From Dehalococcoidia bacterium (GTDB lineage Bacteria > Chloroflexota > Dehalococcoidia > Lucifugimonadales > UBA3495): a DNA stretch of 30,778 nt. The stretch is from positions 1-30,778 of the forward strand of contig JASLXV010000081.1 of assembly GCA_030740155.1 (NCBI GenBank), in the 5' to 3' direction. How positions within the stretch are numbered: position 1 is the stretch's first letter; every line of letters starts with the position of its first letter. Both the position numbers and the translations under genes were made by a program. The notes beneath the pieces were generated by a model. The model ran no database searches. It was not told where the DNA came from and worked only from the letters and a program-made list of their open reading frames with translations. Of the stretch, positions 3,336 to 24,061 are shown in pieces.

Positions 3336-4565
3336 CTAGCCACAGGCGGCGACGCCGTCCCGGACCAAGCCCTGTACCTCCTCCGGCGAGTAACCCGCCA
3401 GACTCATGAGCACCTCTTCGGTGTGCTGACCCACCTCGGGGGCGGGACCTCCCACCCTTCCCGGGGTCCGGCTGAGGTTCACCATCACCCCCAGGGTCCG
3501 CATCGGCCCGTGCACCGGGTGGTCCACGGTGGTCACGTACCCGTTCTCCGTTACCTGAGGGTCCTCGGCCACCTCGGCATAAGACTGGACTTTGGCCGCG
3601 GGGCAGCCGTGCTCCTTGAAGGCCTGGTACCAATCCTCCCGGGTGCGGGTGAGGAAGACCCGGTCCAGGATGGCGATGAGTTCCCGGTTGTTCTCGGCCC
3701 GGCGGTCGCCATGGCTGAAGCGGGCGTTCTGGGCCAGGGCGGGCTCCCCGATGGCTTGGCAGAAGGCGCCCCAGAACAGGTCGCTCTCGGTCATCGCCAG
3801 GTATATCCACTTGCCGTCGCGGCAGCGGTACAGGCTTCGGGTGGGGTTTAAGATGCTGGCGCGCTCCGGTGGCTGAGGGTCCTTACCGGTGCTCAGGCAG
3901 CCCTCCAGGAGCAGCTCGCCGGCGGTGAGCATGGCCCCAATGAGGGAGACCTTTACCTCCTGGCCCAGCCCGGTGCGCTCTCGAGCCAGCAGCGCCACGC
4001 ATACGGCGTAGGCCACCTGGATGCTGGAGGTCATGTCGGCGGCGCCGTACACCCCGGCGGTGGCCGGGTCGCTTTCTACGCTGGTGCGCATCATGTTTAG
4101 GAACCCGCTTCGGGCCTGGGCGGCGACGTCAACCCCCGGCAGCTCGGCATCGTCCCCCAGGGGCCCGTAGGTGTTCAGGTGCACGTAGATAATGGTTGGG
4201 TTGTAGCGGGACACCGTGGCGTAGTCCAGGCCCATGCGCTTCAGAGACTGCATCCTCAGGCTCGTGACCAGAACATCGCAGTGGGGCACGAGGCGATAGA
4301 GAGCGTTCCGGCCCCCTTCCTCTCGCAGATTCAGGGCCACCGATCGCTTCCCCCGGTTGGCCGATTCGAAGAAGTAGCTGTAAGAGCAGGCTGGGAAGAA
4401 GTTGGCGTTGCTCGGTGTCGCGGTGTGCCGGGACCGGTCCCCGATGCCCGGGTCCTCGACCTTGATGACCTCGGCCCCCATGTCCGCTAGGTCCCGGACA
4501 CCATAGGGGACGGCGGCCATCATGGCGAGTTCCAGTATCCGGTAGCCCTCCAGGGGCAACGGCAT
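3336..4565 (-). CDS. Family III (CaiB/BaiF) CoA-transferase
   Basis: LADMGAEVIKVE, NRGKRSVALNL, putative catalytic Asp in GAADMTS, C-terminal APEVGQHTEEVL. Confidence 0.93.
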   Translation of the reverse strand: MPLPLEGYRILELAMMAAVPYGVRDLADMGAEVIKVEDPGIGDRSRHTATPSNANFFPACSYSYFFESANRGKRSVALNLREEGGRNALYRLVPHCDVLVTSLRMQSLKRMGLDYATVSRYNPTIIYVHLNTYGPLGDDAELPGVDVAAQARSGFLNMMRTSVESDPATAGVYGAADMTSSIQVAYAVCVALLARERTGLGQEVKVSLIGAMLTAGELLLEGCLSTGKDPQPPERASILNPTRSLYRCRDGKWIYLAMTESDLFWGAFCQAIGEPALAQNARFSHGDRRAENNRELIAILDRVFLTRTREDWYQAFKEHGCPAAKVQSYAEVAEDPQVTENGYVTTVDHPVHGPMRTLGVMVNLSRTPGRVGGPAPEVGQHTEEVLMSLAGYSPEEVQGLVRDGVAACG

Positions 4566-4628
4566 GGTGCACCTCCTGAGGTGGTTGGGATGCGGCGAAG
4601 TTCCTCGTTCGGAGAAACGGGCGAGCCG

Positions 4629-5867
4629 CTACTGTCCGTTCCCGCTCTCACCCAGGGAGACGATGCCCTGCCTCTGAAGCTGCTCGATCTTCTGCTGGGA
4701 GTATCCCAGTAACTCCTGCAGCACCTCGGCGGTGTGCTGCCCCGTCTGGGGCACGGGATCGTAGATGGGCTGGTGGCTGGAGAGGTTGACGGGGTTGCGC
4801 ACGATCGGGACGGGCTTGCCCTCGACGCCCTCCACGTTGACGACGCAGCCCAGGGCTTGGGCCTGAGGATCGGCCAGGGCGGCATCCAGGGTCTTCACCG
4901 GGGCCACCGGCACTCGGGCCTCCACCAGGCGCTCATACCAGTACTCGGTGGGCTGCTGGACCATGACCTCATGCACCAGTTCCAGGAGCAGCCGCTTGTT
5001 TCTCATCCGCTCCGTCTCGGTGGCGAAGCGAGGGTCATCCCCCCATTCCGGCCGGCCCAAGACCCGGCAGAGTGGGGGAAAGGAACGGTCTCCCAGCACA
5101 CCCAGGGTGATGTGGCCGTCCTTGGTCGGAAAGATGCCCGCCAGGCTGAGCATGCCCACCGACCAGCCAGGGGCGCGGGGGACCTTCCCGCTGAGGAGGT
5201 GCTGGGTCGCGAAGAAGGTGTGGGTGCTGAGCCCAACCTCAAAGAGGGAAACCTCCACGTTTTGCCCCACCCCGGTGTGCTCCCGGTGAAAGAGGGCCGC
5301 CAGGATTCCCTGGGAGGCCCACACCGCGGTGGAGTAGTCCACGAAGGCCTGCCCGGCGAGCATGGGCGGCCCATTGGGCTCCCCCGTCATGCTGAGCATC
5401 CCGGAGTGGGCCGCGGCCACGCTGTCGAAGGAACCCCGCTCCCGGTAGGGCCCCTTGTTGCCGTACCCGCTGATGGAGCAACTGATGATGCGGGGGTTGA
5501 TCTTGTTCAGTGTCTCGTAGTCCACTCCTATCCGCTCCGCCGCCCCCGGACGCCAGTTGTTCTGGACGATGTCCAGGTGCTCTACCATCTGCCGGAAGAT
5601 TTCCAGACCTTCGGGCTCGTTGATGTTCAGAATTATGCTCTTCTTGCCCCGGCACTCGTAGTTGCCCCGGGCGTCCACCCCGCCGGAGGTGGTGGCGGCC
5701 AGCCCGCTCTTCGCGATGCCCCGGGGGCCTCGGCTGGGGACCTCCACCATGATAATATCGGCGCCAAGGTCCGAGAGGATGTTGGCTGACAGGCTCCCGG
5801 CCAGGGTGCGGCTGAAGTCCACCCCCCGGATCCCGCTCAGAGGGGCCGCGTGGTTTCCTCCACTCAT
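4629..5867 (-). CDS. Family III (CaiB/BaiF) CoA-transferase
   Basis: DFSRTLAG..LSDLGADII, RGKKSIILN, NWRPG, Asp in AFVDYST, GQHTAEVL. Confidence 0.93.
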   Translation of the reverse strand: MSGGNHAAPLSGIRGVDFSRTLAGSLSANILSDLGADIIMVEVPSRGPRGIAKSGLAATTSGGVDARGNYECRGKKSIILNINEPEGLEIFRQMVEHLDIVQNNWRPGAAERIGVDYETLNKINPRIISCSISGYGNKGPYRERGSFDSVAAAHSGMLSMTGEPNGPPMLAGQAFVDYSTAVWASQGILAALFHREHTGVGQNVEVSLFEVGLSTHTFFATQHLLSGKVPRAPGWSVGMLSLAGIFPTKDGHITLGVLGDRSFPPLCRVLGRPEWGDDPRFATETERMRNKRLLLELVHEVMVQQPTEYWYERLVEARVPVAPVKTLDAALADPQAQALGCVVNVEGVEGKPVPIVRNPVNLSSHQPIYDPVPQTGQHTAEVLQELLGYSQQKIEQLQRQGIVSLGESGNGQ

Positions 5868-5906
5868 GGTGTTCCTCCTTGCCTACTATGGGCCCACGGA
5901 TAGACG

Positions 5907-5982
5907 GCTAGACTTGATTGAGGGGCCAAATCCCCCTTTATAAAGGGGGACTCAGGGGGATTTCCGCATCGCCGAGTCTAGC
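5907..5982. repeat. Small MITE/REP-like element with CTAG-containing inverted ends
   Basis: Ends GCTAGACTTG and CGAGTCTAGC (9/10 inverted match). Internal perfect palindrome TCCCCCTTTATAAAGGGGGA at 5931-5950. Confidence 0.6.
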
Positions 5983-6058
5983 AACTTGTACAAAGCTCGT
6001 AGGTTCCTCGTCGGGCGATCCTGCCCCAAGATGTAACGGATTGGCGCAAGTACGCCGG

Positions 6059-6907
6059 CTAGGCCCGCCGGGGCTTGATTCCCGTGAACTTCACGCTGGA
6101 CACCTTCCCCTGTACTTGGGCCAGCTCCTCCTGCGCCGGGGCCGGGGCCGGGGTGAACTCCTCTCCGGGACAACAGGCCATGGCTGCCAGTTCGTCCGGG
6201 GTGAGCAGGTGGCGGTTGACGATGCGGACCTCGTAGAAACCAGCTTCACTCACCGTTTGCCAGTAGTCGTCCTCGGTGATGGCCCCTCCCAAACACCCGG
6301 ACCAGGTTGAGCGGAACCGCTCTCGCAACTCGGGGCCGATGTCCTCGGTGAGGACGATGTCCGAAATGGCCAGCCGCCCGCCGGCTTTCAGGACACGGCA
6401 GGCTTCCCGGTATATCTCCGCTTTATCCGGGCACAGGTTAATGACACAGTTGGAAATTACCACGTCGGCGAAACCATCCACCAGGGGGGTGTTCGCCAGG
6501 TCGGCGACGTGCAGTTCAACGTTCCCGCCGGCCAGCCCGGCTTCGGTTACCGCGCGGTTGGCGCGCTCAATCATCTCGGGGGCGAAATCTACCCCGGCCA
6601 CCCTGCCGTCGAGGCCCACCTTGTGCGCCGCCAGAACCACGTCGATGCCCCCGCCGCAGCCGAAGTCCACCACGACTTCACCGCTCCGGAGACCGGCAAA
6701 GCCGGTGGGGTTGCCGCAACCCCGGGTGAGGTTGAGGGCGGCCTCCGGCACCAGGTCAAGCTCCTCCGGAGAGTAGAGCCCTTGATCGACCGCGTAGCCC
6801 GAACCGGGCTTCGCCTTGCTGGGTCAACAGGCTTCCTGATTGCCCCCTGACGCGGCGAACTTTCCGTAGCGAACCCTGATGGCTTGCTTGATCTCCTCGG
6901 TCAGCAT
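6059..6907 (-). CDS. ArsM-like (arsenite methyltransferase family) SAM-dependent methyltransferase, probable selenoprotein (Sec at codon 28)
   Basis: RBS GAGGTG + ATG 6907 gives MLTEEIKQAIRVRYGKFAASGGNQEAC-UGA-PSKAKPGSGYAVDQGLYSPEELDLVPEAA, in frame with the tracked ORF. ArsM motifs: GCGNP, VVDFGCGGGID, ISNCVINL, WSGCLGGA. SECIS-like hairpin after the UGA. 282 aa. Confidence 0.85.
6786..6826 (-). promoter_or_regulatory. Candidate bacterial SECIS element with the in-frame UGA (6826-6824)
   Basis: mRNA reads UGA-CCCAGCAAG-GCG-A-AGCCCG-GUU-CGGGCU-A-CGC-GGUCGA. The G-starting apical loop begins 19 nt after the UGA, and UUGACC can pair with GGUCGA as a lower stem. Confidence 0.7.
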
Positions 6908-6937
6908 CCCGCACCTCGTCCCTGATGCCGTTTCAGT

Positions 6938-7078
6938 TAGTGTACCGGGCTGTAAATAGCTTTACATCGGCGAGATTGGGCGACACTCTCTCCCCACGAT
7001 CGTCCCCGATTGCATCGGGGGCAGGCTCTTCGCCGGGATGACGGATTGGGTGTCATGCCATTTACGATACATCAGACC
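6938..7078. repeat. Degenerate dispersed MITE/REP-like repeat (homologous to 28630-28789)
   Basis: Shares AAATAGCTTTAC.TCGGCG....GGGCGACA..CTCTCCC.ACGATCGTC and TTC.CCGGGAT.ACG with the copy after nadC. Confidence 0.7.
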
Positions 7079-7081
7079 GGG

Positions 7082-7372
7082 TTAGAAGAGGTCCTCCTCC
7101 ACACCGTTGTACTCCGGCAGGTGGTGGCGTCGCCGGAGGTATTGCTGGAGAAGCTCGCTCTCGCGCATGGTGTACATGTGGGTGGTCTCGTACTGGAAGA
7201 ACCGGGCCGGGGGCACCTCTTCTCGGGCGGCCTTCAAGGCTTGCCGCAGGTCTGGGGCCCCGGCAATGCGGAGCACCTGCTCCTTTTCATCCAGGAGTTG
7301 GTACACGCCCTCCCTATCGGGGACATCCTCCAGAGCCGTGTCTTCCAGTGGAAACTTCGGGGGCCGGCGCAT
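7082..7372 (-). CDS. Small GIY-YIG/UvrC-N-like protein resembling the C-terminal domain of BzdV
   Basis: VPDREGVYQLLDE..VLRIAG..DLRQAL..MYTMRESELLQQY..LPEYN..EDLF, in a bzd gene context. Confidence 0.7.
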   Translation of the reverse strand: MRRPPKFPLEDTALEDVPDREGVYQLLDEKEQVLRIAGAPDLRQALKAAREEVPPARFFQYETTHMYTMRESELLQQYLRRRHHLPEYNGVEEDLF

Positions 7373-7419
7373 GATGCGTTCTCTTTCTCCCTTCCGGCAT
7401 TTGGGCGGCGGGCGGCGGG

Positions 7420-7701
7420 CTACCAGGAGTGGACGATGGCGTCGTGGGGGCAGGCCAGAACGCAGGGGAGCGGCGGAGGGCTATCCACCGGCTTGCAAGG
7501 GGCGCAACTGAACTTCAGATTCTTGCGGTGCTCTTCCGACACCGTTAACACCGTGTCGTCGTAGTCGTCGAGCATCATTTCCAGCACCCCCGCCGGGCAG
7601 GCCGGGACGCAGTCGCCGCAGCCGTCGCAGCGGCCGCTATCCACCCGGATGTACCAGTCACCCGACCCATCGGTGTACCCGTAGTGAGCGATGTATCCCA
7701 T
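7420..7701 (-). CDS. bzdM: Bzd-type 2[4Fe-4S] ferredoxin
   Basis: AHYGYTDGSGDWYI, CDGCGDCVPACP, CAPCKP..LPCVLACP..AIVHSW, directly after bzdQ. Confidence 0.85.
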   Translation of the reverse strand: MGYIAHYGYTDGSGDWYIRVDSGRCDGCGDCVPACPAGVLEMMLDDYDDTVLTVSEEHRKNLKFSCAPCKPVDSPPPLPCVLACPHDAIVHSW

Positions 7702-7830
7702 ACCTGCCTGCTGCCTCGTTACGCTACGGTTCGCGGCCTCCGCGCCAAAGCACCGTCTTGGTTCGCCCCTCCCCAGGGTAGGAGCGTGGGGCCGGCGCCC
7801 CGCTGCACGCCGGCGCGGGCGTCAGCCGCT

Positions 7831-8733
7831 TCATCCCTTGGCCTTCGCCCTCAGGGCCAAGCTGTTGGCGAAGAGAGCGGCGCCCAGGGCGCCGGCGGTC
7901 TGGGGGTCTGTACCCTCGGGCGGCGCCAGGGCCTTTACCCCCAGCTTCCGCTCGATGCGCTTGACGATGCCGGGGTTCTTGGCGATACCCCCGGTGATGG
8001 CGAACTCCGGCTCCAGGCCGATGCGCTCCAAGAGGGTGACCACCCGGCCCGCCATGGCTTCGCAGAAGGCGGCCAGGGCCAGCTCCCGGGAATAGCCGGT
8101 GCGCAGCAAACCCAGGACCTCCGACTTGGCGAAGACGACGCAGGTGCTGCTGACAGCGGGAGGGTCTTTCTCCACGTTCAGGGAGAGGGGGCCCATCTCC
8201 GTTACGGAGACCTTCATCAGCTCGGCCATGGTCTCCATGCCCCGCCCCGTGCCGGCGGCGCACTTGTCGTTCATGAGAAACTCTTCCAGCTTGCCCCTTT
8301 CGTCGCAGCGGATGGCCTTGCAGTCCTGCCCCCCCATGTCCAAGATTGTGCGGACGGTGGGACCGTAGATGAAGTTGGCCCCCCGGGCGTGGCAGCTGAT
8401 CTCGGTGATCTGGCGCTGGGCGAAGGGGATGTTCACTCGTCCGTAGCCGGTGCCCACCACGTAGGCCACGTCTTCGAGGGAGAGAGCCGCGGGCTCCAGG
8501 GCCCATTCCATGGCCTGCTGAGCTATTGAGGCGCTGTCGGCGGAGGTCCGGATGCTGGCGAAGGCGAAGGGTTGGCCGTCCCGCAGCACAACGGCTTGGG
8601 TGCTGACCGAACCGACGTCAATGCCGCCGGTCAGGAGGGCGCCATCGGTCCCGCCCGTGTCTTCGGCGTGCCAGCGGTACTCTTCCCACCGCCAGTATTC
8701 CCGATCTCCTCGCTCCAACACCTCGCGCACCAT
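7831..8733 (-). CDS. bzdQ: Bzd-type aryl-CoA reductase ATPase (activator) subunit Q
   Basis: EYWRWEEYRW N-terminus, GIDVGSVS, LDMGGQD, MNDKCAAGTG, STCVVFAKSE. Start at ATG 8733 after RBS GAGGAGG. Confidence 0.88.
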   Translation of the reverse strand: MVREVLERGDREYWRWEEYRWHAEDTGGTDGALLTGGIDVGSVSTQAVVLRDGQPFAFASIRTSADSASIAQQAMEWALEPAALSLEDVAYVVGTGYGRVNIPFAQRQITEISCHARGANFIYGPTVRTILDMGGQDCKAIRCDERGKLEEFLMNDKCAAGTGRGMETMAELMKVSVTEMGPLSLNVEKDPPAVSSTCVVFAKSEVLGLLRTGYSRELALAAFCEAMAGRVVTLLERIGLEPEFAITGGIAKNPGIVKRIERKLGVKALAPPEGTDPQTAGALGAALFANSLALRAKAKG

Positions 8734-8753
8734 GGAATGGTCCTCCTCTAAGG

Positions 8754-9554
8754 TTATAGGGCAGCCGTTCGATTCTCGCTTTGGGCGTTTCGCACCCCCA
8801 TGACCGCGGCGCCCACCGCCGCGACCATGTCCGGGGGATCGGGCACCTCCAGGTGGTCCACCTCGAGGGTTTGGCGCAGGGCCTCCACGAAACCCACGTC
8901 CCAGCCCATGCCGCCGCACACCATCATCGCCTCTTCCGCGCCCACCCGGTGGACCAGGGCGGCCAGCCGCCGGGCCATGGACACGTGGATGGCCAGCATG
9001 ATGTTCTCCCGGGGGGTCTTGGCGTGGATCTGGGAGATGATCTCAGTCTCGGCAAAAACAACACAGGTGGCGCTCATGTCCGCCGCCTCGGTAGCCGTGA
9101 GGGAGAGCCGGCCCGCCTCATCCAGGGGGACCTCCAGCATGCGGGCGGCGGTCCGGACGAAGGAGCCGGTACCGGCGGCGCACTGATCGTTGGTGGCGAA
9201 GCGCTCCATCTGACCCTGGGGGCCGACCCGGATGGCCCGGGCGTCCTCCGCTCCCACGTCCATTACGGTGCGGGCTTCCGGCGCCAGGAAATTGGCCCCC
9301 GCGGCGACGGCAACGATCTCCGTCACCGTGTGGTTGGCCCCGGACACCCAGGTAGAGCCGGTGCCCGTGGCCACCAGATAGCCTAGGTCGCCCCGCTCCA
9401 GGCCCCCGAGCTTCAATACCTCCTGGAGGACCTGCTGGGCCGTGGCATCGATGTCGAACTCGGTGGGGACCCGCGCGGTGGCCACCAGGCCCTGAGGGCC
9501 GACGATGGCCGCCTTGGTGACCTCTGATCCTACGTCAATTCCCACGACGTACAT
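8754..9554 (-). CDS. bzdP: Bzd-type aryl-CoA reductase ATPase (activator) subunit P
   Basis: GIDVGSE, DVGAEDAR, NDQCAAGTGSF, ATCVVFAETE (ASKHA fold with [4Fe-4S] Cys ligands). Confidence 0.85.
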   Translation of the reverse strand: MYVVGIDVGSEVTKAAIVGPQGLVATARVPTEFDIDATAQQVLQEVLKLGGLERGDLGYLVATGTGSTWVSGANHTVTEIVAVAAGANFLAPEARTVMDVGAEDARAIRVGPQGQMERFATNDQCAAGTGSFVRTAARMLEVPLDEAGRLSLTATEAADMSATCVVFAETEIISQIHAKTPRENIMLAIHVSMARRLAALVHRVGAEEAMMVCGGMGWDVGFVEALRQTLEVDHLEVPDPPDMVAAVGAAVMGVRNAQSENRTAAL

Positions 9555-9584
9555 GGTACGCTCCTTATCATCCGGGCCCGAGTT

Positions 9585-10715
9585 CTAGAAGAGGGCATTC
9601 TCTAGAAGGGTCTCCATGAAGGCCTCCACCCTGGTGCGGATGGGGCCGTATGGGGTAGGGAAGGTCATCTCCACCCGGAGGGTGGGGATGTCTTCCTCCT
9701 TCAGTTTGGCTTCCAGGACCGGCGTTTCCCAACCGTGGGGATCGCAGAACTTCTGGAGGGCGAAGATAACACCGCTGACGTTGTACTCGCGCGCCAGGTT
9801 CATGATGTGCGGGACGCGGGTGCGGCTAGTCCAGTCCCGCAGGGGGCATCGGGGCCGGTCGATGTAGCGCTGGGCCAGCGTCAGTATCCGGTCCTCGGCT
9901 GGAGTCACCTCGTTCCAGAAGTAGCGGGTGCCGGCGCATTCGTCGTCGGTGACGATGAGCATCCCTGCCTGCTCGATGGTGCGCACCAACTCCACGTCGT
10001 TCAGCTCGCTGCCCACCAGCATGCCCCTGAGTTCCGGAAGGTCGATCTGCCGGCCTTCCAACTCCCCTAGGAGCTGCTCCAGCAGCTGGTTGTGATCCGC
10101 CTTGTCCATGTAGAATCCGGCCAGCACCACCTCCAGGACCTCGGCTCCGGTGATGGGCGGGGTGGGGCTCTTGCGCGTCTCGTAGAGCCGATGCAGCAGC
10201 CGGCGGTTGGTGTTGTACACCTCGAAGGCGTGGTCCAGCGCCTCGTTGGTAATGGCCTCGCCCCGCCACTCCTCGACCTGTTTCCGGAAGGTTTCCATCT
10301 CCCGGCCCCAGTAAGCGGGGGCCGCCGGAGTCTGGAGGTTCCAGGGGGCGTCGATGAAGTGTTTCTTGGGGCCGGGGATCTCCCGCTGCCAGATCTCGTA
10401 CATCTGGGTCATGTGGATACAGGTGAGGGTGCTCACGAAGTAGCCCAGATAGTCGTAATGCCCGTCCAGCCCGGCGGAGACGCAGCTCCGCGAGAAGCCG
10501 CACCAGGTGGCGCCCATGGACCGGTCCGCCGATCCGGGGTATCCCAGGTCGCCGAAGATCCGCACCGGAAGGACCCCCGCCGCATAGGCGATCTCCTCAG
10601 GGACGTAGGTGCAGGTGTACCCCAAGACCTGTCCCCCGGTTCGCTCCTTCCAGGCTTTTGGGTAGGCGTGCCGGTCCCGGGTGATCTCCGCCAACTGTGC
10701 CAGCGCATTACTCAT
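9585..10715 (-). CDS. bzdN: Bzd-type aryl-CoA reductase subunit N (HgdAB/FldBC family)
   Basis: RHAYPKAWKERTGGQVLGYTCTYVPEE, DDECAGTRYFWN, RYIDRPRCP, QKFCDPH, GPIRTRVEAF. Alternative start at 10721. Confidence 0.88.
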   Translation of the reverse strand: MSNALAQLAEITRDRHAYPKAWKERTGGQVLGYTCTYVPEEIAYAAGVLPVRIFGDLGYPGSADRSMGATWCGFSRSCVSAGLDGHYDYLGYFVSTLTCIHMTQMYEIWQREIPGPKKHFIDAPWNLQTPAAPAYWGREMETFRKQVEEWRGEAITNEALDHAFEVYNTNRRLLHRLYETRKSPTPPITGAEVLEVVLAGFYMDKADHNQLLEQLLGELEGRQIDLPELRGMLVGSELNDVELVRTIEQAGMLIVTDDECAGTRYFWNEVTPAEDRILTLAQRYIDRPRCPLRDWTSRTRVPHIMNLAREYNVSGVIFALQKFCDPHGWETPVLEAKLKEEDIPTLRVEMTFPTPYGPIRTRVEAFMETLLENALF

Positions 10716-12075
10716 TGCCATCTCCCGCCGGAGCGGCGCCCGCCGACCGGCTTTCCCCGATGGGCCGGAGCCCCATCCCCTCCATGAAGGCGTCCAGGGT
10801 CTTCAGGGCGGCCGGGATGTTCAACTCCCGGGGATCGGCGGTACTGGGGTCGATATCCACCGCCGGGACTCCCGCCCGTTGGATCTCGGCCATGCGGGAC
10901 AACCCGCCCAGGGAGCTGGGCCGGCACCGCCGTTCCAATCCCAGGATGACCCCGTCGGCCTTCCAGTCCCGCACCTGGGCCAGGACCTCGTCGCCCTTGG
11001 ACATGGGCCGGCAGGTGACCTGGGTCGCCCGAATGACTCCTTCTCCCCCCAGATAGCGGTCGGCCATGGACCACAGCCCGTCTTCCCGGGTGCGCACGTC
11101 CCAGCCCCGCTCCTTGGGCGTCTTGGAGGGCACCCAACTCCCGTCGGGCGTCACGTCCCAGACCCCGAAGCTGACGAAGGGAAGGCTGCCCCCGACGAGG
11201 ACGGCCCCGTAGGCCTCGGGGTAGCGGAGGAGCTTCTGCCCCTCGGGGAAGAACGGGATGAAGTCGTCCCACAGGAGCCGGGCCGTCTCCACGCCCCGGG
11301 CGGAGATGCCCTCATCAACCCGCTGCTTCACCTCGTCGTACACCGTCCGGTAGAACTCCAGGATGTGGGGCTTGTCCCGGTCCAGGATGAGGGGAATACG
11401 CAGGGAGGTGAGCATACGGTAGTCCAGGGGTGCGGGAACGGCCTGGTTGAGAACGCAGATGCGGGACCAGAGGGCGCTGGTCTCCCAGTCCAGCTCCAGG
11501 GCGCGGAGGAACAGCTCGTCCTGAAACTTCTTGCCGGTGATCCCTTCGATCTCCTCGATGGCGATATGGAATTGGTCCACCATGTACTGGAGGTCCGGCG
11601 ACTGGTAGCCGTAGCGGAATGGCAGGTCCAGGGTGACTATGGGGACCCCTCCCAGGTGCTCCACCACCGACTGGACCATCTTCATCGTGAAGGGGCACAG
11701 CTCCCACTGGAAGACGAAGTCCGGCTTCCGGCCTTCCAGGGCCTCGGTCAGGTGGCCCCGGTACACGCCCCCCAGGTGCAGTTTGAGGGAGCTGCACAGG
11801 TCCTTCGGGTAGCCTCGGGTCTCCAACAGCTCCAGGTTGGCCACGTTCTCGTCGTAGGAGCGCACCATCTTGGTGAACCGGGGCTCGTATTGCCAGCTGG
11901 CATACTCCCCGAACCCGGCCATCAAGGGCTGGAACTCCTCGATGATGCCCACGGCCACCATTCCACCCGAATTGGCCGTCTGCTCGTTGTGGACGTGATG
12001 GGCGCGGCGTAACTCCTTCATCTTGGCCCAGCATTCCAGGGGCTTGATTGGGTAACGTTGGAGGGTCTGCACCAT
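10708..12075 (-). CDS. bzdO: Bzd-type aryl-CoA reductase subunit O, divergent
   Basis: YPIKPLECWAKMKELR, GYPKDLCS, KPDFVFQ, PAPLD, GVWDVTPDGSW, WKADGVIL. Overlaps the bzdN start. Confidence 0.82.
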   Translation of the reverse strand: MVQTLQRYPIKPLECWAKMKELRRAHHVHNEQTANSGGMVAVGIIEEFQPLMAGFGEYASWQYEPRFTKMVRSYDENVANLELLETRGYPKDLCSSLKLHLGGVYRGHLTEALEGRKPDFVFQWELCPFTMKMVQSVVEHLGGVPIVTLDLPFRYGYQSPDLQYMVDQFHIAIEEIEGITGKKFQDELFLRALELDWETSALWSRICVLNQAVPAPLDYRMLTSLRIPLILDRDKPHILEFYRTVYDEVKQRVDEGISARGVETARLLWDDFIPFFPEGQKLLRYPEAYGAVLVGGSLPFVSFGVWDVTPDGSWVPSKTPKERGWDVRTREDGLWSMADRYLGGEGVIRATQVTCRPMSKGDEVLAQVRDWKADGVILGLERRCRPSSLGGLSRMAEIQRAGVPAVDIDPSTADPRELNIPAALKTLDAFMEGMGLRPIGESRSAGAAPAGDGNE

Positions 12076-12179
12076 GTCGCTGCCTCCTCAACGGCACTGG
12101 GCCGTCATCTTCAATTTTCGAGCCCATCCGGGCTCTTCCGGGTGGCTGAGTCCTGGTCATTCGATTGGATCGGGTGATT

Positions 12180-12331
12180 AGTTGCTAGCCCAAAACCTTG
12201 AGTGCCGGTTTCAGCGGTCCTTCGACAGGCTCAGGACGAACGGGATGGGCGCTCCTGCTTCGTTCGCGGTGAGGCTCAGGACAATCGGAAAGGGCGCTCC
12301 TGCTCCGTTCGTGGTGAGCTTGTCGAACCAC
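12180..12331. repeat. MITE/REP-like element, degenerate copy of 19115-19238 in opposite orientation with an internal duplication
   Basis: CCCAAAACCTTGAGTGCCG..TCCTTCGACAGGCTCAGGACGAACGG..GGGCGCTCCT..CGTTCGTGGTGAGCTTGTCGAACCAC. Confidence 0.85.
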
Positions 12332-12348
12332 TTCATCTTTGTTCTTGC

Positions 12349-13572
12349 TCAGAGCACGCCCGAGTCCCTGACTTGGGCAATGCGCTCGGGGCTGTAGCCC
12401 AGGATGCCGCTCAACACCTCCTCGGTGTGCTCCCCCAGCCGGGGGGCCAGGCCCCTGGGCCGGGCCGGCGTCTTCTCGAAGTGGACTGGAGGCCCCACCA
12501 GCTTCCAGGGGGTCCCATCATCGTCCTCAAGGTCTACCACGTAGCCGCTCTCCACGGCCTGGGAATACTTGACCGCCTCCTCCGTGTTCAGCACGGGGGC
12601 GTAGCCAAACTGGCACCCGTTTACATCGAAGATGCAGATCCACTCGTCCCGGGGCCGGGTGGCGAAGGCCTCCTCTAGCCCCTGGATGGCCACTCCGTAG
12701 TGCTCCCGCCGCTTGACGGCGTTCTCCAGCCGGGGGTCCATGGCCAGGTCCTCCCGGTCCATCAGGAGGCACATCTCCTCCCAGTAACGGTCCGACTGGG
12801 GCTCCGCCAGAATGATCCACTTGTTGTCGGAGCACCGGTAGTGGTTGGACATGGGGTTGCGGGCGCGGGCGCGGGAGTGGCGTCCCATGGCCCGCCCTTG
12901 CATGAGGGCGGTATTTACGTTGACGGCTTGCATGTGAAGGGCCGTTCCGAGGAGAGACGCTTCCACCATCTGACCCTCCCCGGTTCGCTCCCGGTGCAGC
13001 AGGGCCGCCAGGATGCCCCAAGCGCTCATGGTCGCCCCCGACTGGTCGAAGAGTCCTCCCACCACCTGCCACGGCTCGTCGTGGTCCCGCTCCCCCATCA
13101 TCCACATCACCCCCGAGAGGGCCTGGGCCAGAGGGTCGAAGAAGCGCTTCGAGGTGATGGGTCCCCGGGGTCCGACGGGGGATGCCAGGGTGTAGATGAG
13201 CTTGGAATTAAACTTGCGCAGGGTTTCGTAGTCGGCGCCCATGCGGCAGAGGGTGGCCGGCCGGAAGTTGGTGAGGAACACGTCGGTCTTCGCCACCAGC
13301 TCGTGGAAGATCTGCCGGCCGGGTTCCTGCCTCAGGTCGAGGGTAATGCTCTTCTTGTCGCGGTTGGCGGTCTCCATGAAAAGGTTCCGGCCGCCGGGCA
13401 GGGCCATGCTGGAGCCCCACAGGTTATAGAAGTGGCGGGAGGCGTCACCCACTCCGGGCTCCTCCACCTTGATGACCTCAGCTCCCAGTTGCGCCAGCAT
13501 GTAACCCCCCGCGGTGCCATGCTGGAAGGTCGTGCATTCCAGAATCCGAATGCCCTCTAAGATATCGCCCAT
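12349..13572 (-). CDS. Family III (CaiB/BaiF) CoA-transferase
   Basis: LGAEVIKVEEPGVGD, NRDKKSITLDL, TNFRP, Asp in GLFDQSG, APRLGEHTEEVL. Confidence 0.93.
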   Translation of the reverse strand: MGDILEGIRILECTTFQHGTAGGYMLAQLGAEVIKVEEPGVGDASRHFYNLWGSSMALPGGRNLFMETANRDKKSITLDLRQEPGRQIFHELVAKTDVFLTNFRPATLCRMGADYETLRKFNSKLIYTLASPVGPRGPITSKRFFDPLAQALSGVMWMMGERDHDEPWQVVGGLFDQSGATMSAWGILAALLHRERTGEGQMVEASLLGTALHMQAVNVNTALMQGRAMGRHSRARARNPMSNHYRCSDNKWIILAEPQSDRYWEEMCLLMDREDLAMDPRLENAVKRREHYGVAIQGLEEAFATRPRDEWICIFDVNGCQFGYAPVLNTEEAVKYSQAVESGYVVDLEDDDGTPWKLVGPPVHFEKTPARPRGLAPRLGEHTEEVLSGILGYSPERIAQVRDSGVL

Positions 13573-23935: not shown

Positions 23936-24024
23936 GGAGGGATCGCATAGTGGCCTAGTGCGGGCGCCTGCTAAGCGCTTAACCTGTGAAAGCGGGTTCA
24001 TGGGTTCGAATCCCATTCCCTCCG
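23936..24024 (+). tRNA. tRNA-Ser(GCT)
   Basis: Acceptor GGAGGGA/TCCCTCC, anticodon arm GGCGC-CTGCTAA-GCGCT, long variable arm, GGTTCGAATCC, discriminator G. CCA is not encoded. Confidence 0.95.
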
Positions 24025-24061
24025 CCGTCTCTTGTACCTACGGCCGCCTCGGCTAACAAAT

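Follow-up and report, generated by a model that had tools for sequence, protein, structure and literature searches.

A predicted selenoprotein of the ArsM/AS3MT methyltransferase type, with a Cys-Sec dyad at its N-terminal cysteine site, in a Dehalococcoidia bacterium

We analysed a stretch of 30,778 nucleotides from a Dehalococcoidia bacterium (contig JASLXV010000081.1; the whole stretch is called the window below) and, within it, a gene on the minus strand between positions 6059 and 6907 that carries one in-frame TGA. The gene is real: conservation of the UGA, a hairpin downstream of it, the machinery for selenocysteine (Sec), the fold of the product and its cysteine pattern are all present. 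Very probably, the gene is intact and encodes a 282-residue protein of the ArsM/AS3MT type, in which the UGA at 6826-6824 is decoded as Sec by way of SelB, tRNA-Sec and the hairpin at 6814-6792. The parts of the gene that define the reading frame are as follows.

Positions 6059..6907, minus strand: complete gene, predicted to encode a selenoprotein, for an S-adenosylmethionine (SAM) methyltransferase of the ArsM/AS3MT type; 282 codons plus TAG, from the sequence, its translation, model NF008823, a CmArsM profile and fold matches.
Positions 6912..6917, minus strand: Shine-Dalgarno-like GAGGTG, 4 nucleotides (nt) upstream of the ATG at 6907-6905, read directly.
Positions 6824..6826, minus strand: in-frame TGA, the predicted selenocysteine codon (U28), immediately following the Cys27 codon TGT at 6829-6827.

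The frame starts at the ATG, ends with the TAG at 6061-6059 and has the TGA as its sole interruption; translation through the TGA gives ...NQEAC-U-PSKAKPGSGYAVDQGLYSPEELDLVP... Calling of open reading frames (ORFs) with genetic code table 11 recovers only a 230-codon piece, which has its GTG start at 6751 and so lacks the first 52 codons of the full frame, and database homologues of 228-249 amino acids begin just past the TGA and are thus truncated gene calls. A first-pass annotation, made from the letters alone, had described an extension of the ORF by 52 codons to an ATG preceded by GAGGTG, broken only by a TGA after a Cys codon, and had held that pipelines would truncate the gene; the sequence and its translation bear out the former and the database entries the latter.

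The same codon was then followed across related loci found in species-representative genomes. Of 530 confirmed relatives the best 80 were used, a sample of the closest ones rather than a census, and every one of the 80 was aligned to the read-through protein. Among these best 80 of 530, the codons aligned to C27-U28 were Cys-TGA, within the motif C-U-P-S-K, in 57 loci and Cys-Cys in 17; the remainder had shifted or other pairs (S-C, C-G or C-A; 5 loci) or, in one case (L106), did not align at this point. The 57 TGA-bearing loci of this sample span several phyla. The pairing of Sec and Cys at codon 28 is thus met with, TGA in some homologues and Cys in others, and conservation extends to both sides of the codon, as the first-pass annotation had expected of a true selenoprotein. 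Database proteins with the motif 'CWP' raised the possibility of a Trp at codon 28, which we rule out, as at the DNA level TGG occurs at that codon in none of the best 80 of 530 loci and the apparent Trp is TGA translated as W; three of the CWP entries likewise read their terminal TGA as W. Upstream of the TGA (57 sequences, the window plus 56 TGA loci) there was no in-frame stop in any sequence, and 49 of the 57 had ATG at codon 1. Diversity over the 24 codons before the TGA was 0.219, 0.175 and 0.508 at codon positions 1, 2 and 3, and this bias of variation toward the third position argues for purifying selection on the upstream reading frame. Some of the relatives are damaged or irregular. 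The 5' end of L106 is cut, upstream of the hairpin-coding part (L106:2800-3200), by an apparent IS3-type transposase end; the hairpin is retained, and the locus is probably a dead copy. Two TGA-bearing orthologues, L105 and L073, have a second in-frame stop within the match, and the frame of L105 closes about 126 codons in; either the genes are broken or the stop is a second recoded codon.

The TGA is followed by a hairpin of the bacterial selenocysteine insertion sequence (bSECIS) type.

Positions 6792..6814, minus strand: bSECIS-type hairpin GCGA-AGCCCG-GUU-CGGGCU-ACGC, -13.7 kcal/mol with the lower stem.

The core, AGCCCG-GUU-CGGGCU, lies at 6810-6796, with the apical loop GUU at 6804-6802 and the start of the loop 19 nt past the UGA, where the first-pass annotation had placed it. 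The model for bacterial SECIS elements given in section 5 of PMC13188914 has a loop of 3-9 nt, a stem of 4-16 bp, a G within the first two positions of the loop, a distance of 16-37 nt from the UGA and a minimum free energy of at most -7.5 kcal/mol; the hairpin in the window, with its GUU loop, 6-bp stem, 19-nt spacing and folding energy, agrees with this model throughout. The surrounding 66 nt fold with -28 kcal/mol (z = -2.49), and only 1 of 200 shuffled sequences folded equally well. In an alignment of 58 sequences (the 57 TGA loci plus the window), the six pairs of the hairpin were formed in 91.7% of cells, as compared with 7-44% when the 3' partners were slid, and RNAalifold predicted five core pairs independently. 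Four loci (L088, L095, L100 and L105) break the columns of the hairpin but retain the hairpin itself, with the register shifted by one base. Local hairpin energies had a median of -7.3 kcal/mol at loci without the TGA (n=23, L106 included), as against -8.6 kcal/mol for the TGA-bearing group (Mann-Whitney p 8e-4). A scan of the window with Rfam at gathering thresholds returned one tRNA only and no SECIS family, and is uninformative on SECIS elements.

The source genome (108 contigs, 93.7% complete) is equipped to insert Sec. The first-pass annotation had called for a search of the genome for selA, selB, selC and selD, and we found selA (548.6 bits), selB (322.8 bits), selD (376.8 bits) and a tRNA-Sec (69.4 bits), to which ARAGORN assigned the anticodon TCA. 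The selD gene has an in-frame TGA of its own (G000:C32:19124-20044, L013), and the SelD of this genome is probably a selenoprotein too. An 89-nt tRNA within the window, at 23936-24026, was considered as selC and rejected, being tRNA-Ser(GCT). In ten genomes picked by hand, selA was present in 5/5 with a member of the Sec clade (four TGA-bearing loci and the 5'-truncated L106) versus 1/5 with the Cys form. Of 20 genes called with confidence in the window, 7 end with TGA, which has therefore not been reassigned genome-wide.

DNA nearly identical to that of the window was found in marine or seawater metagenome runs from about nine studies. The positions 6824-6826 are covered, with no listed difference, by contigs of three runs from three other studies, none of the runs being marked as a possible source of the assembly. 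The retention of the TGA in contigs of three independent studies excludes an assembly error, which the first-pass annotation had named as a way in which its reading might fail. In a further run, X13, a low-depth variant contig has lost one nt and gained another three bases away at 6811-6814, where the spacer adjoins the lower stem of the SECIS element, along with several substitutions; it is probably from a related strain.

The protein is an ArsM/AS3MT-type methyltransferase, in which the other three catalytic cysteines are kept as Cys. With C substituted for U, the best NCBIfam model was NF008823 (arsenite methyltransferase), over residues 3-280; Pfam detected the class I SAM methyltransferase domains Methyltransf_31/11/25, and the family profile matched CmArsM with an expectation value (E) of 4.5e-30. 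An AlphaFold model had a mean predicted local distance difference test score (pLDDT) of 83.1, and nine of its ten top matches in Foldseek were ArsM/AS3MT structures, at query template-modelling scores (TMq) of 0.64-0.67. In this model the segment with U28 follows the N-terminal helix and precedes the Rossmann core; it is coil over residues 20-37, and pLDDT falls below 50 at residues 31-36, which is consistent with the segment being a mobile arm. The cysteines outside the arm are the following.

Positions 6716..6718, minus strand: Cys64 codon, in GCGNP; aligns with Cys72 of CmArsM and is invariant in alignment A1.
Positions 6446..6448, minus strand: Cys154 codon, in SNCVINL; aligns with Cys174 of CmArsM, a metalloid ligand, and is invariant in alignment A1.
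Positions 6293..6295, minus strand: Cys205 codon TGT, in WSG-C-LGG; aligns with Cys224 of CmArsM, where catalogued ArsM selenoproteins have their Sec (UxxG).
Positions 6170..6175, minus strand: Cys245-Cys246, in MACCPG; ordinary Cys codons.

These agree with the first-pass annotation, which had reported intact GCGNP, NCVINL and WSGC cysteines and an additional C-terminal CC; all are ordinary Cys codons. In an alignment with CrArsM (5EVJ), the N-terminal dyad of the family falls on the first conserved Cys of CrArsM, which puts U28 at the site equivalent to Cys44 of CmArsM and Cys32 of human AS3MT (hAS3MT). All four ArsM cysteine sites (CmArsM 44, 72, 174 and 224) are therefore retained, as C27-U28, C64, C154 and C205, with the Sec beside a Cys at the first. 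C246-P247-G248 was invariant in 31/31 aligned sequences. Possibly, Cys245-Cys246, or C246 in particular, is the counterpart of hAS3MT Cys250, because C246 lies 41 residues after C205 and Cys250 lies 44 after Cys206.

In the published model for ArsM, the arsenical is held by Cys174 and Cys224. Reduction of the transient methyl-As(V) on the enzyme falls to Cys44, which afterwards pairs with Cys72 in a disulfide that is reduced by thioredoxin (PMC6138428, section 4). For human AS3MT, a Cys32-Cys250 disulfide is described that needs reduction before catalysis (PMC4211708). We infer a corresponding redox role for U28. SelB and tRNA-Sec would decode the UGA as Sec, directed by the hairpin at 6814-6792, and C27 and U28 would be a vicinal dyad carried by a flexible loop, at the first ArsM cysteine site. 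As a selenolate, U28 would do the work of Cys44, in that it would supply the electrons for the reduction of the enzyme-bound methyl-As(V), and would then enter a selenenylsulfide with C64 or, as alternative partners, with C27 or C246. Meanwhile, C154 and C205 would hold the metalloid.

Several observations weigh against this interpretation. No arsenic-resistance genes were found in the window, and a scan of 82 nearest neighbours drawn from the 57 Sec loci gave no match to an ars family. The score with NF008823, 241.1 bits, is below the curated cut-off of 263. An orthologue is missing from the genomes of the same family and the same order, where the best identity was 47%, and the three TGA-bearing relatives examined there (L125, L126 and L127) have the TGA at the C205 column and not at codon 28. 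The hairpin is so nearly invariant that its covariation signal is weak: changes on both sides occurred in 2 of 9 pairs, in 3 cells, and 15-49 of 500 shuffles matched the observed values. The hairpin region also codes for the conserved peptide P-G-S-G-Y, so that constraint on the RNA and constraint on the protein are inseparable here. Evidence at the RNA level comes down to one 219-nt metatranscriptome contig (run X19, 6160-6370), which may be carry-over of DNA and is not counted as expression.

Two alternatives deny that the UGA encodes Sec. In one, the TGA is a true stop, the 27 codons before it are a dead remnant or a small ORF, and the product is a 230-residue protein that starts at the GTG at 6751. 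Exactly this ORF is what table-11 calling yields, and many database entries of 228-249 residues are of the same kind. It is nevertheless scarcely credible: the TGA is conserved in 57 loci from several phyla behind a frame that is open and varies mostly at third positions, the truncated product would lose the first conserved ArsM cysteine, and there would be no explanation for the hairpin or the Sec machinery. In the other, the UGA is translated into one of the standard amino acids (Trp, Cys or Gly), either by genome-wide recoding or by near-cognate suppression. The 'CWP' of the database homologues speaks for it, but their W residues are TGA in the DNA and the entries also run through terminal TGAs as W. 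In addition, TGA ends seven of the 20 confident genes of the window, homologues without the TGA have Cys, as is usual for Sec/Cys pairs, and selA goes with the TGA-bearing forms. We regard this, too, as very improbable. In particular, the Trp or Arg at this position that the first-pass annotation had thought capable of overturning its reading was not found; the homologues have Cys or TGA, and what looks like Trp is a miscalled TGA.

The alternative to be taken more seriously accepts the selenoprotein and questions its substrate, which might physiologically be another soft metalloid, a selenium or tellurium species, or a thiol compound, and not arsenite. The missing ars genes in the window and beside the Sec loci, the lack of conservation among the neighbourhoods and the score below the cut-off of NF008823 would all suit it, and so would the fusion of relatives to MerT-like membrane domains (P0076, PF02411), which points to soft metals generally. 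Conversely, the four ArsM cysteine sites are kept along with the full architecture of the PRK11873 type, and the best matches, in sequence as in fold, are ArsM/AS3MT structures. Moreover, many characterised arsM genes are located outside ars operons. On this evidence we think a substrate other than arsenite unlikely. Since there are no ars genes nearby, it is from homology that we infer arsenic to be the substrate. Of the Sec-containing metalloid methyltransferase put forward in the first-pass annotation, the selenoprotein is thus supported, and arsenite is the substrate that homology suggests.

The neighbourhood of the gene is of a different character. A conserved gene neighbourhood was sought across the 57 Sec loci and not found. 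In the window, the gene lies within a cluster of genes on the same strand (3336-13572, minus) with three family III CoA-transferases, two HGD-D subunits resembling those of 2-hydroxyacyl-CoA dehydratase or benzoyl-CoA reductase, two BcrAD/BadFG ATPases, a 4Fe-4S ferredoxin and a DUF7508 protein. Short intergenic elements flank it at 5929-5965, which includes the palindrome TCCCCCTTTATAAAGGGGGA, and at 6957-7020. Over these elements the summed contig depth exceeds that of the gene several-fold, and numerous contigs are broken there and have loose ends; the elements look like multi-copy repeats. The source genome also has a second ArsM-like paralogue (G000:C23:82555-83244), with 39% identity; its open frame has 422 codons, and the match contains no TGA. 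Some relatives of the Cys form are fused to membrane domains: P0076 has the MerT-like domain (PF02411) at its C-terminus, and P0029 is extended at its N-terminus by a transmembrane part with a CC motif.

The distribution of the Sec form was assessed on an LG+G4 tree of 80 rows, which used all alignment columns, the N-terminal arm included, left out L106 and was rooted at the midpoint only. Phyla were intermixed within the Sec group, and the Sec/Cys label required 3 changes on the tree, as compared with 19.4 in shuffles. This fits horizontal spread of a stand-alone gene.

Current annotation cuts the protein to about 230-250 residues and so removes one of the four catalytic residues. As a result, surveys of arsM diversity and counts of selenoproteomes miss or misjudge the clade in many uncultured lineages, this marine organism among them. 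Selenocysteine normally takes the place of redox-active cysteines, and its presence at the site equivalent to Cys44 would be a separate, evolutionary argument that this residue has a redox role in arsenic methylation. Sec and Cys variants of the enzyme would then be predicted to differ in the reduction step and not in the binding of the metalloid, and the availability of selenium would be tied to the capacity for metalloid methylation in these organisms. A broader proposal, which we hold to be possible though somewhat doubtful, is that the protein belongs to a clade of four-cysteine ArsM proteins, canonical in other respects and widespread across phyla, in which the N-terminal redox Cys has become Sec, at a site so far uncatalogued, and in which the arm serves as a built-in selenenylsulfide electron shuttle, much like the tail of thioredoxin reductase, that speeds the reductive step. 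If this were true, the clade would be a natural experiment in support of the disulfide-cascade model of arsenic methylation, and the N-terminal Sec site would be missing from current selenoprotein catalogues and surveys of arsM genes. We consider the finding to be of moderate relevance to the cataloguing of selenoproteomes, to surveys of arsM and to the question of how arsenic is methylated.

Selenoproteins of the ArsM family are known. An 'arsenite methyltransferase' with the motif UxxG and one Sec is among the prokaryotic selenoproteins listed in PMC13188914 and PMC9312934, where it is credited to Fomenko et al. 2007 (Science 315:387). The window protein resembles these forms in belonging to the same methyltransferase family (PRK11873/NF008823 type), in its exchange of Sec for Cys, in having the SECIS element right after the UGA and in being truncated by annotation. 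It differs in the site: their Sec is at the position of CmArsM Cys224, where the window protein has Cys205 (TGT), and its own Sec lies 177 residues upstream. In all eight ArsM selenoproteins in supplement 3 of PMC2398784, all of them GOS (Global Ocean Sampling) sequences, the U stands at ...AC-U-VSG or LWT[A/G]-U-IAG, which is the Cys205 column. The same column holds the Sec in the three paralogues of relatives mentioned above and in 11 of the 12 top loci (L128-L137 and L139) from a search of 301 genomes of the window's phylum. The ArsM-like selenoprotein of these loci has its TGA in DLWT[A/G]-U-I[A/G]GAL and is without the GCGNP and SNC cysteines. These two cysteines are mostly missing from bacterial UxxG forms, and all those examined (relatives, phylum loci and NF041537 members) are without C64 and C154.

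A second group comprises the families NF041537 (ArsM/AhpD), NF041536 (ArsM/DUF2284) and NF047649 (methyltransferase/UXPK-star), which PMC13188914 attributes to Haft & Tolstoy 2025. They share with the window protein an ArsM-like core, and have multiple selenocysteines and a distribution rich in anaerobes. The window protein, however, has no AhpD or DUF2284 domain (Pfam) and no C-terminal UXPK, and it scored 167.9, 161.3 and 157.8 bits on the three models, as against cut-offs of 510, 575 and 460. True members of NF041537 (590.6 and 512.3 bits) have Sec at R/Q-U-EGG, the UxxG site, and in the CxxU of the AhpD domain; they lack an N-terminal Cys dyad and have V and G in place of C64 and C154. The possibility that 'UU' in the NCBIfam names stands for a Sec-Sec dyad at the N-terminal site was rejected on this ground. 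Among the 301 genomes of the window's phylum, none had a protein above the cut-off of NF041536.

Literature searches for Sec at the N-terminal ArsM cysteine, the coverage of which did not extend to Haft & Tolstoy 2025, gave only listings of the UxxG family, and the main text of BSepDB together with one incomplete supplement named no methyltransferase. Thus, as to whether the subfamily had already been catalogued, on which the first-pass annotation had not committed itself, ArsM selenoproteins have been, but with Sec at UxxG, a different cysteine; a single Sec at the N-terminal Cys of an otherwise all-Cys ArsM is absent from the catalogues inspected.

With the all-Cys enzymes (CmArsM, 4FS8/4KW7/6CX6; CrArsM, 5EVJ; human AS3MT, 8XT7), the window protein has in common the fold, the SAM-binding motif and the four cysteine sites. 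The likeness extends to an N-terminal Cys for which a redox role has been proposed, through a disulfide with Cys72 (PMC6138428) or with hAS3MT Cys250 (PMC4211708), but the window protein has Sec in place of that Cys, beside a retained one. It is, in addition, a short bacterial form of about 280 residues, whereas the algal and human enzymes have a long C-terminal domain.

A vicinal redox dyad of Cys and Sec is found in mammalian thioredoxin reductase, which ends in a C-terminal GCUG. A 'CU' motif is also reported for MbdU (PMC13188914). Both proteins are unrelated to the window protein, so that the resemblance is one of design only: in each, an adjacent Cys-Sec pair on a mobile segment could, by analogy, form an intramolecular selenenylsulfide and shuttle electrons.

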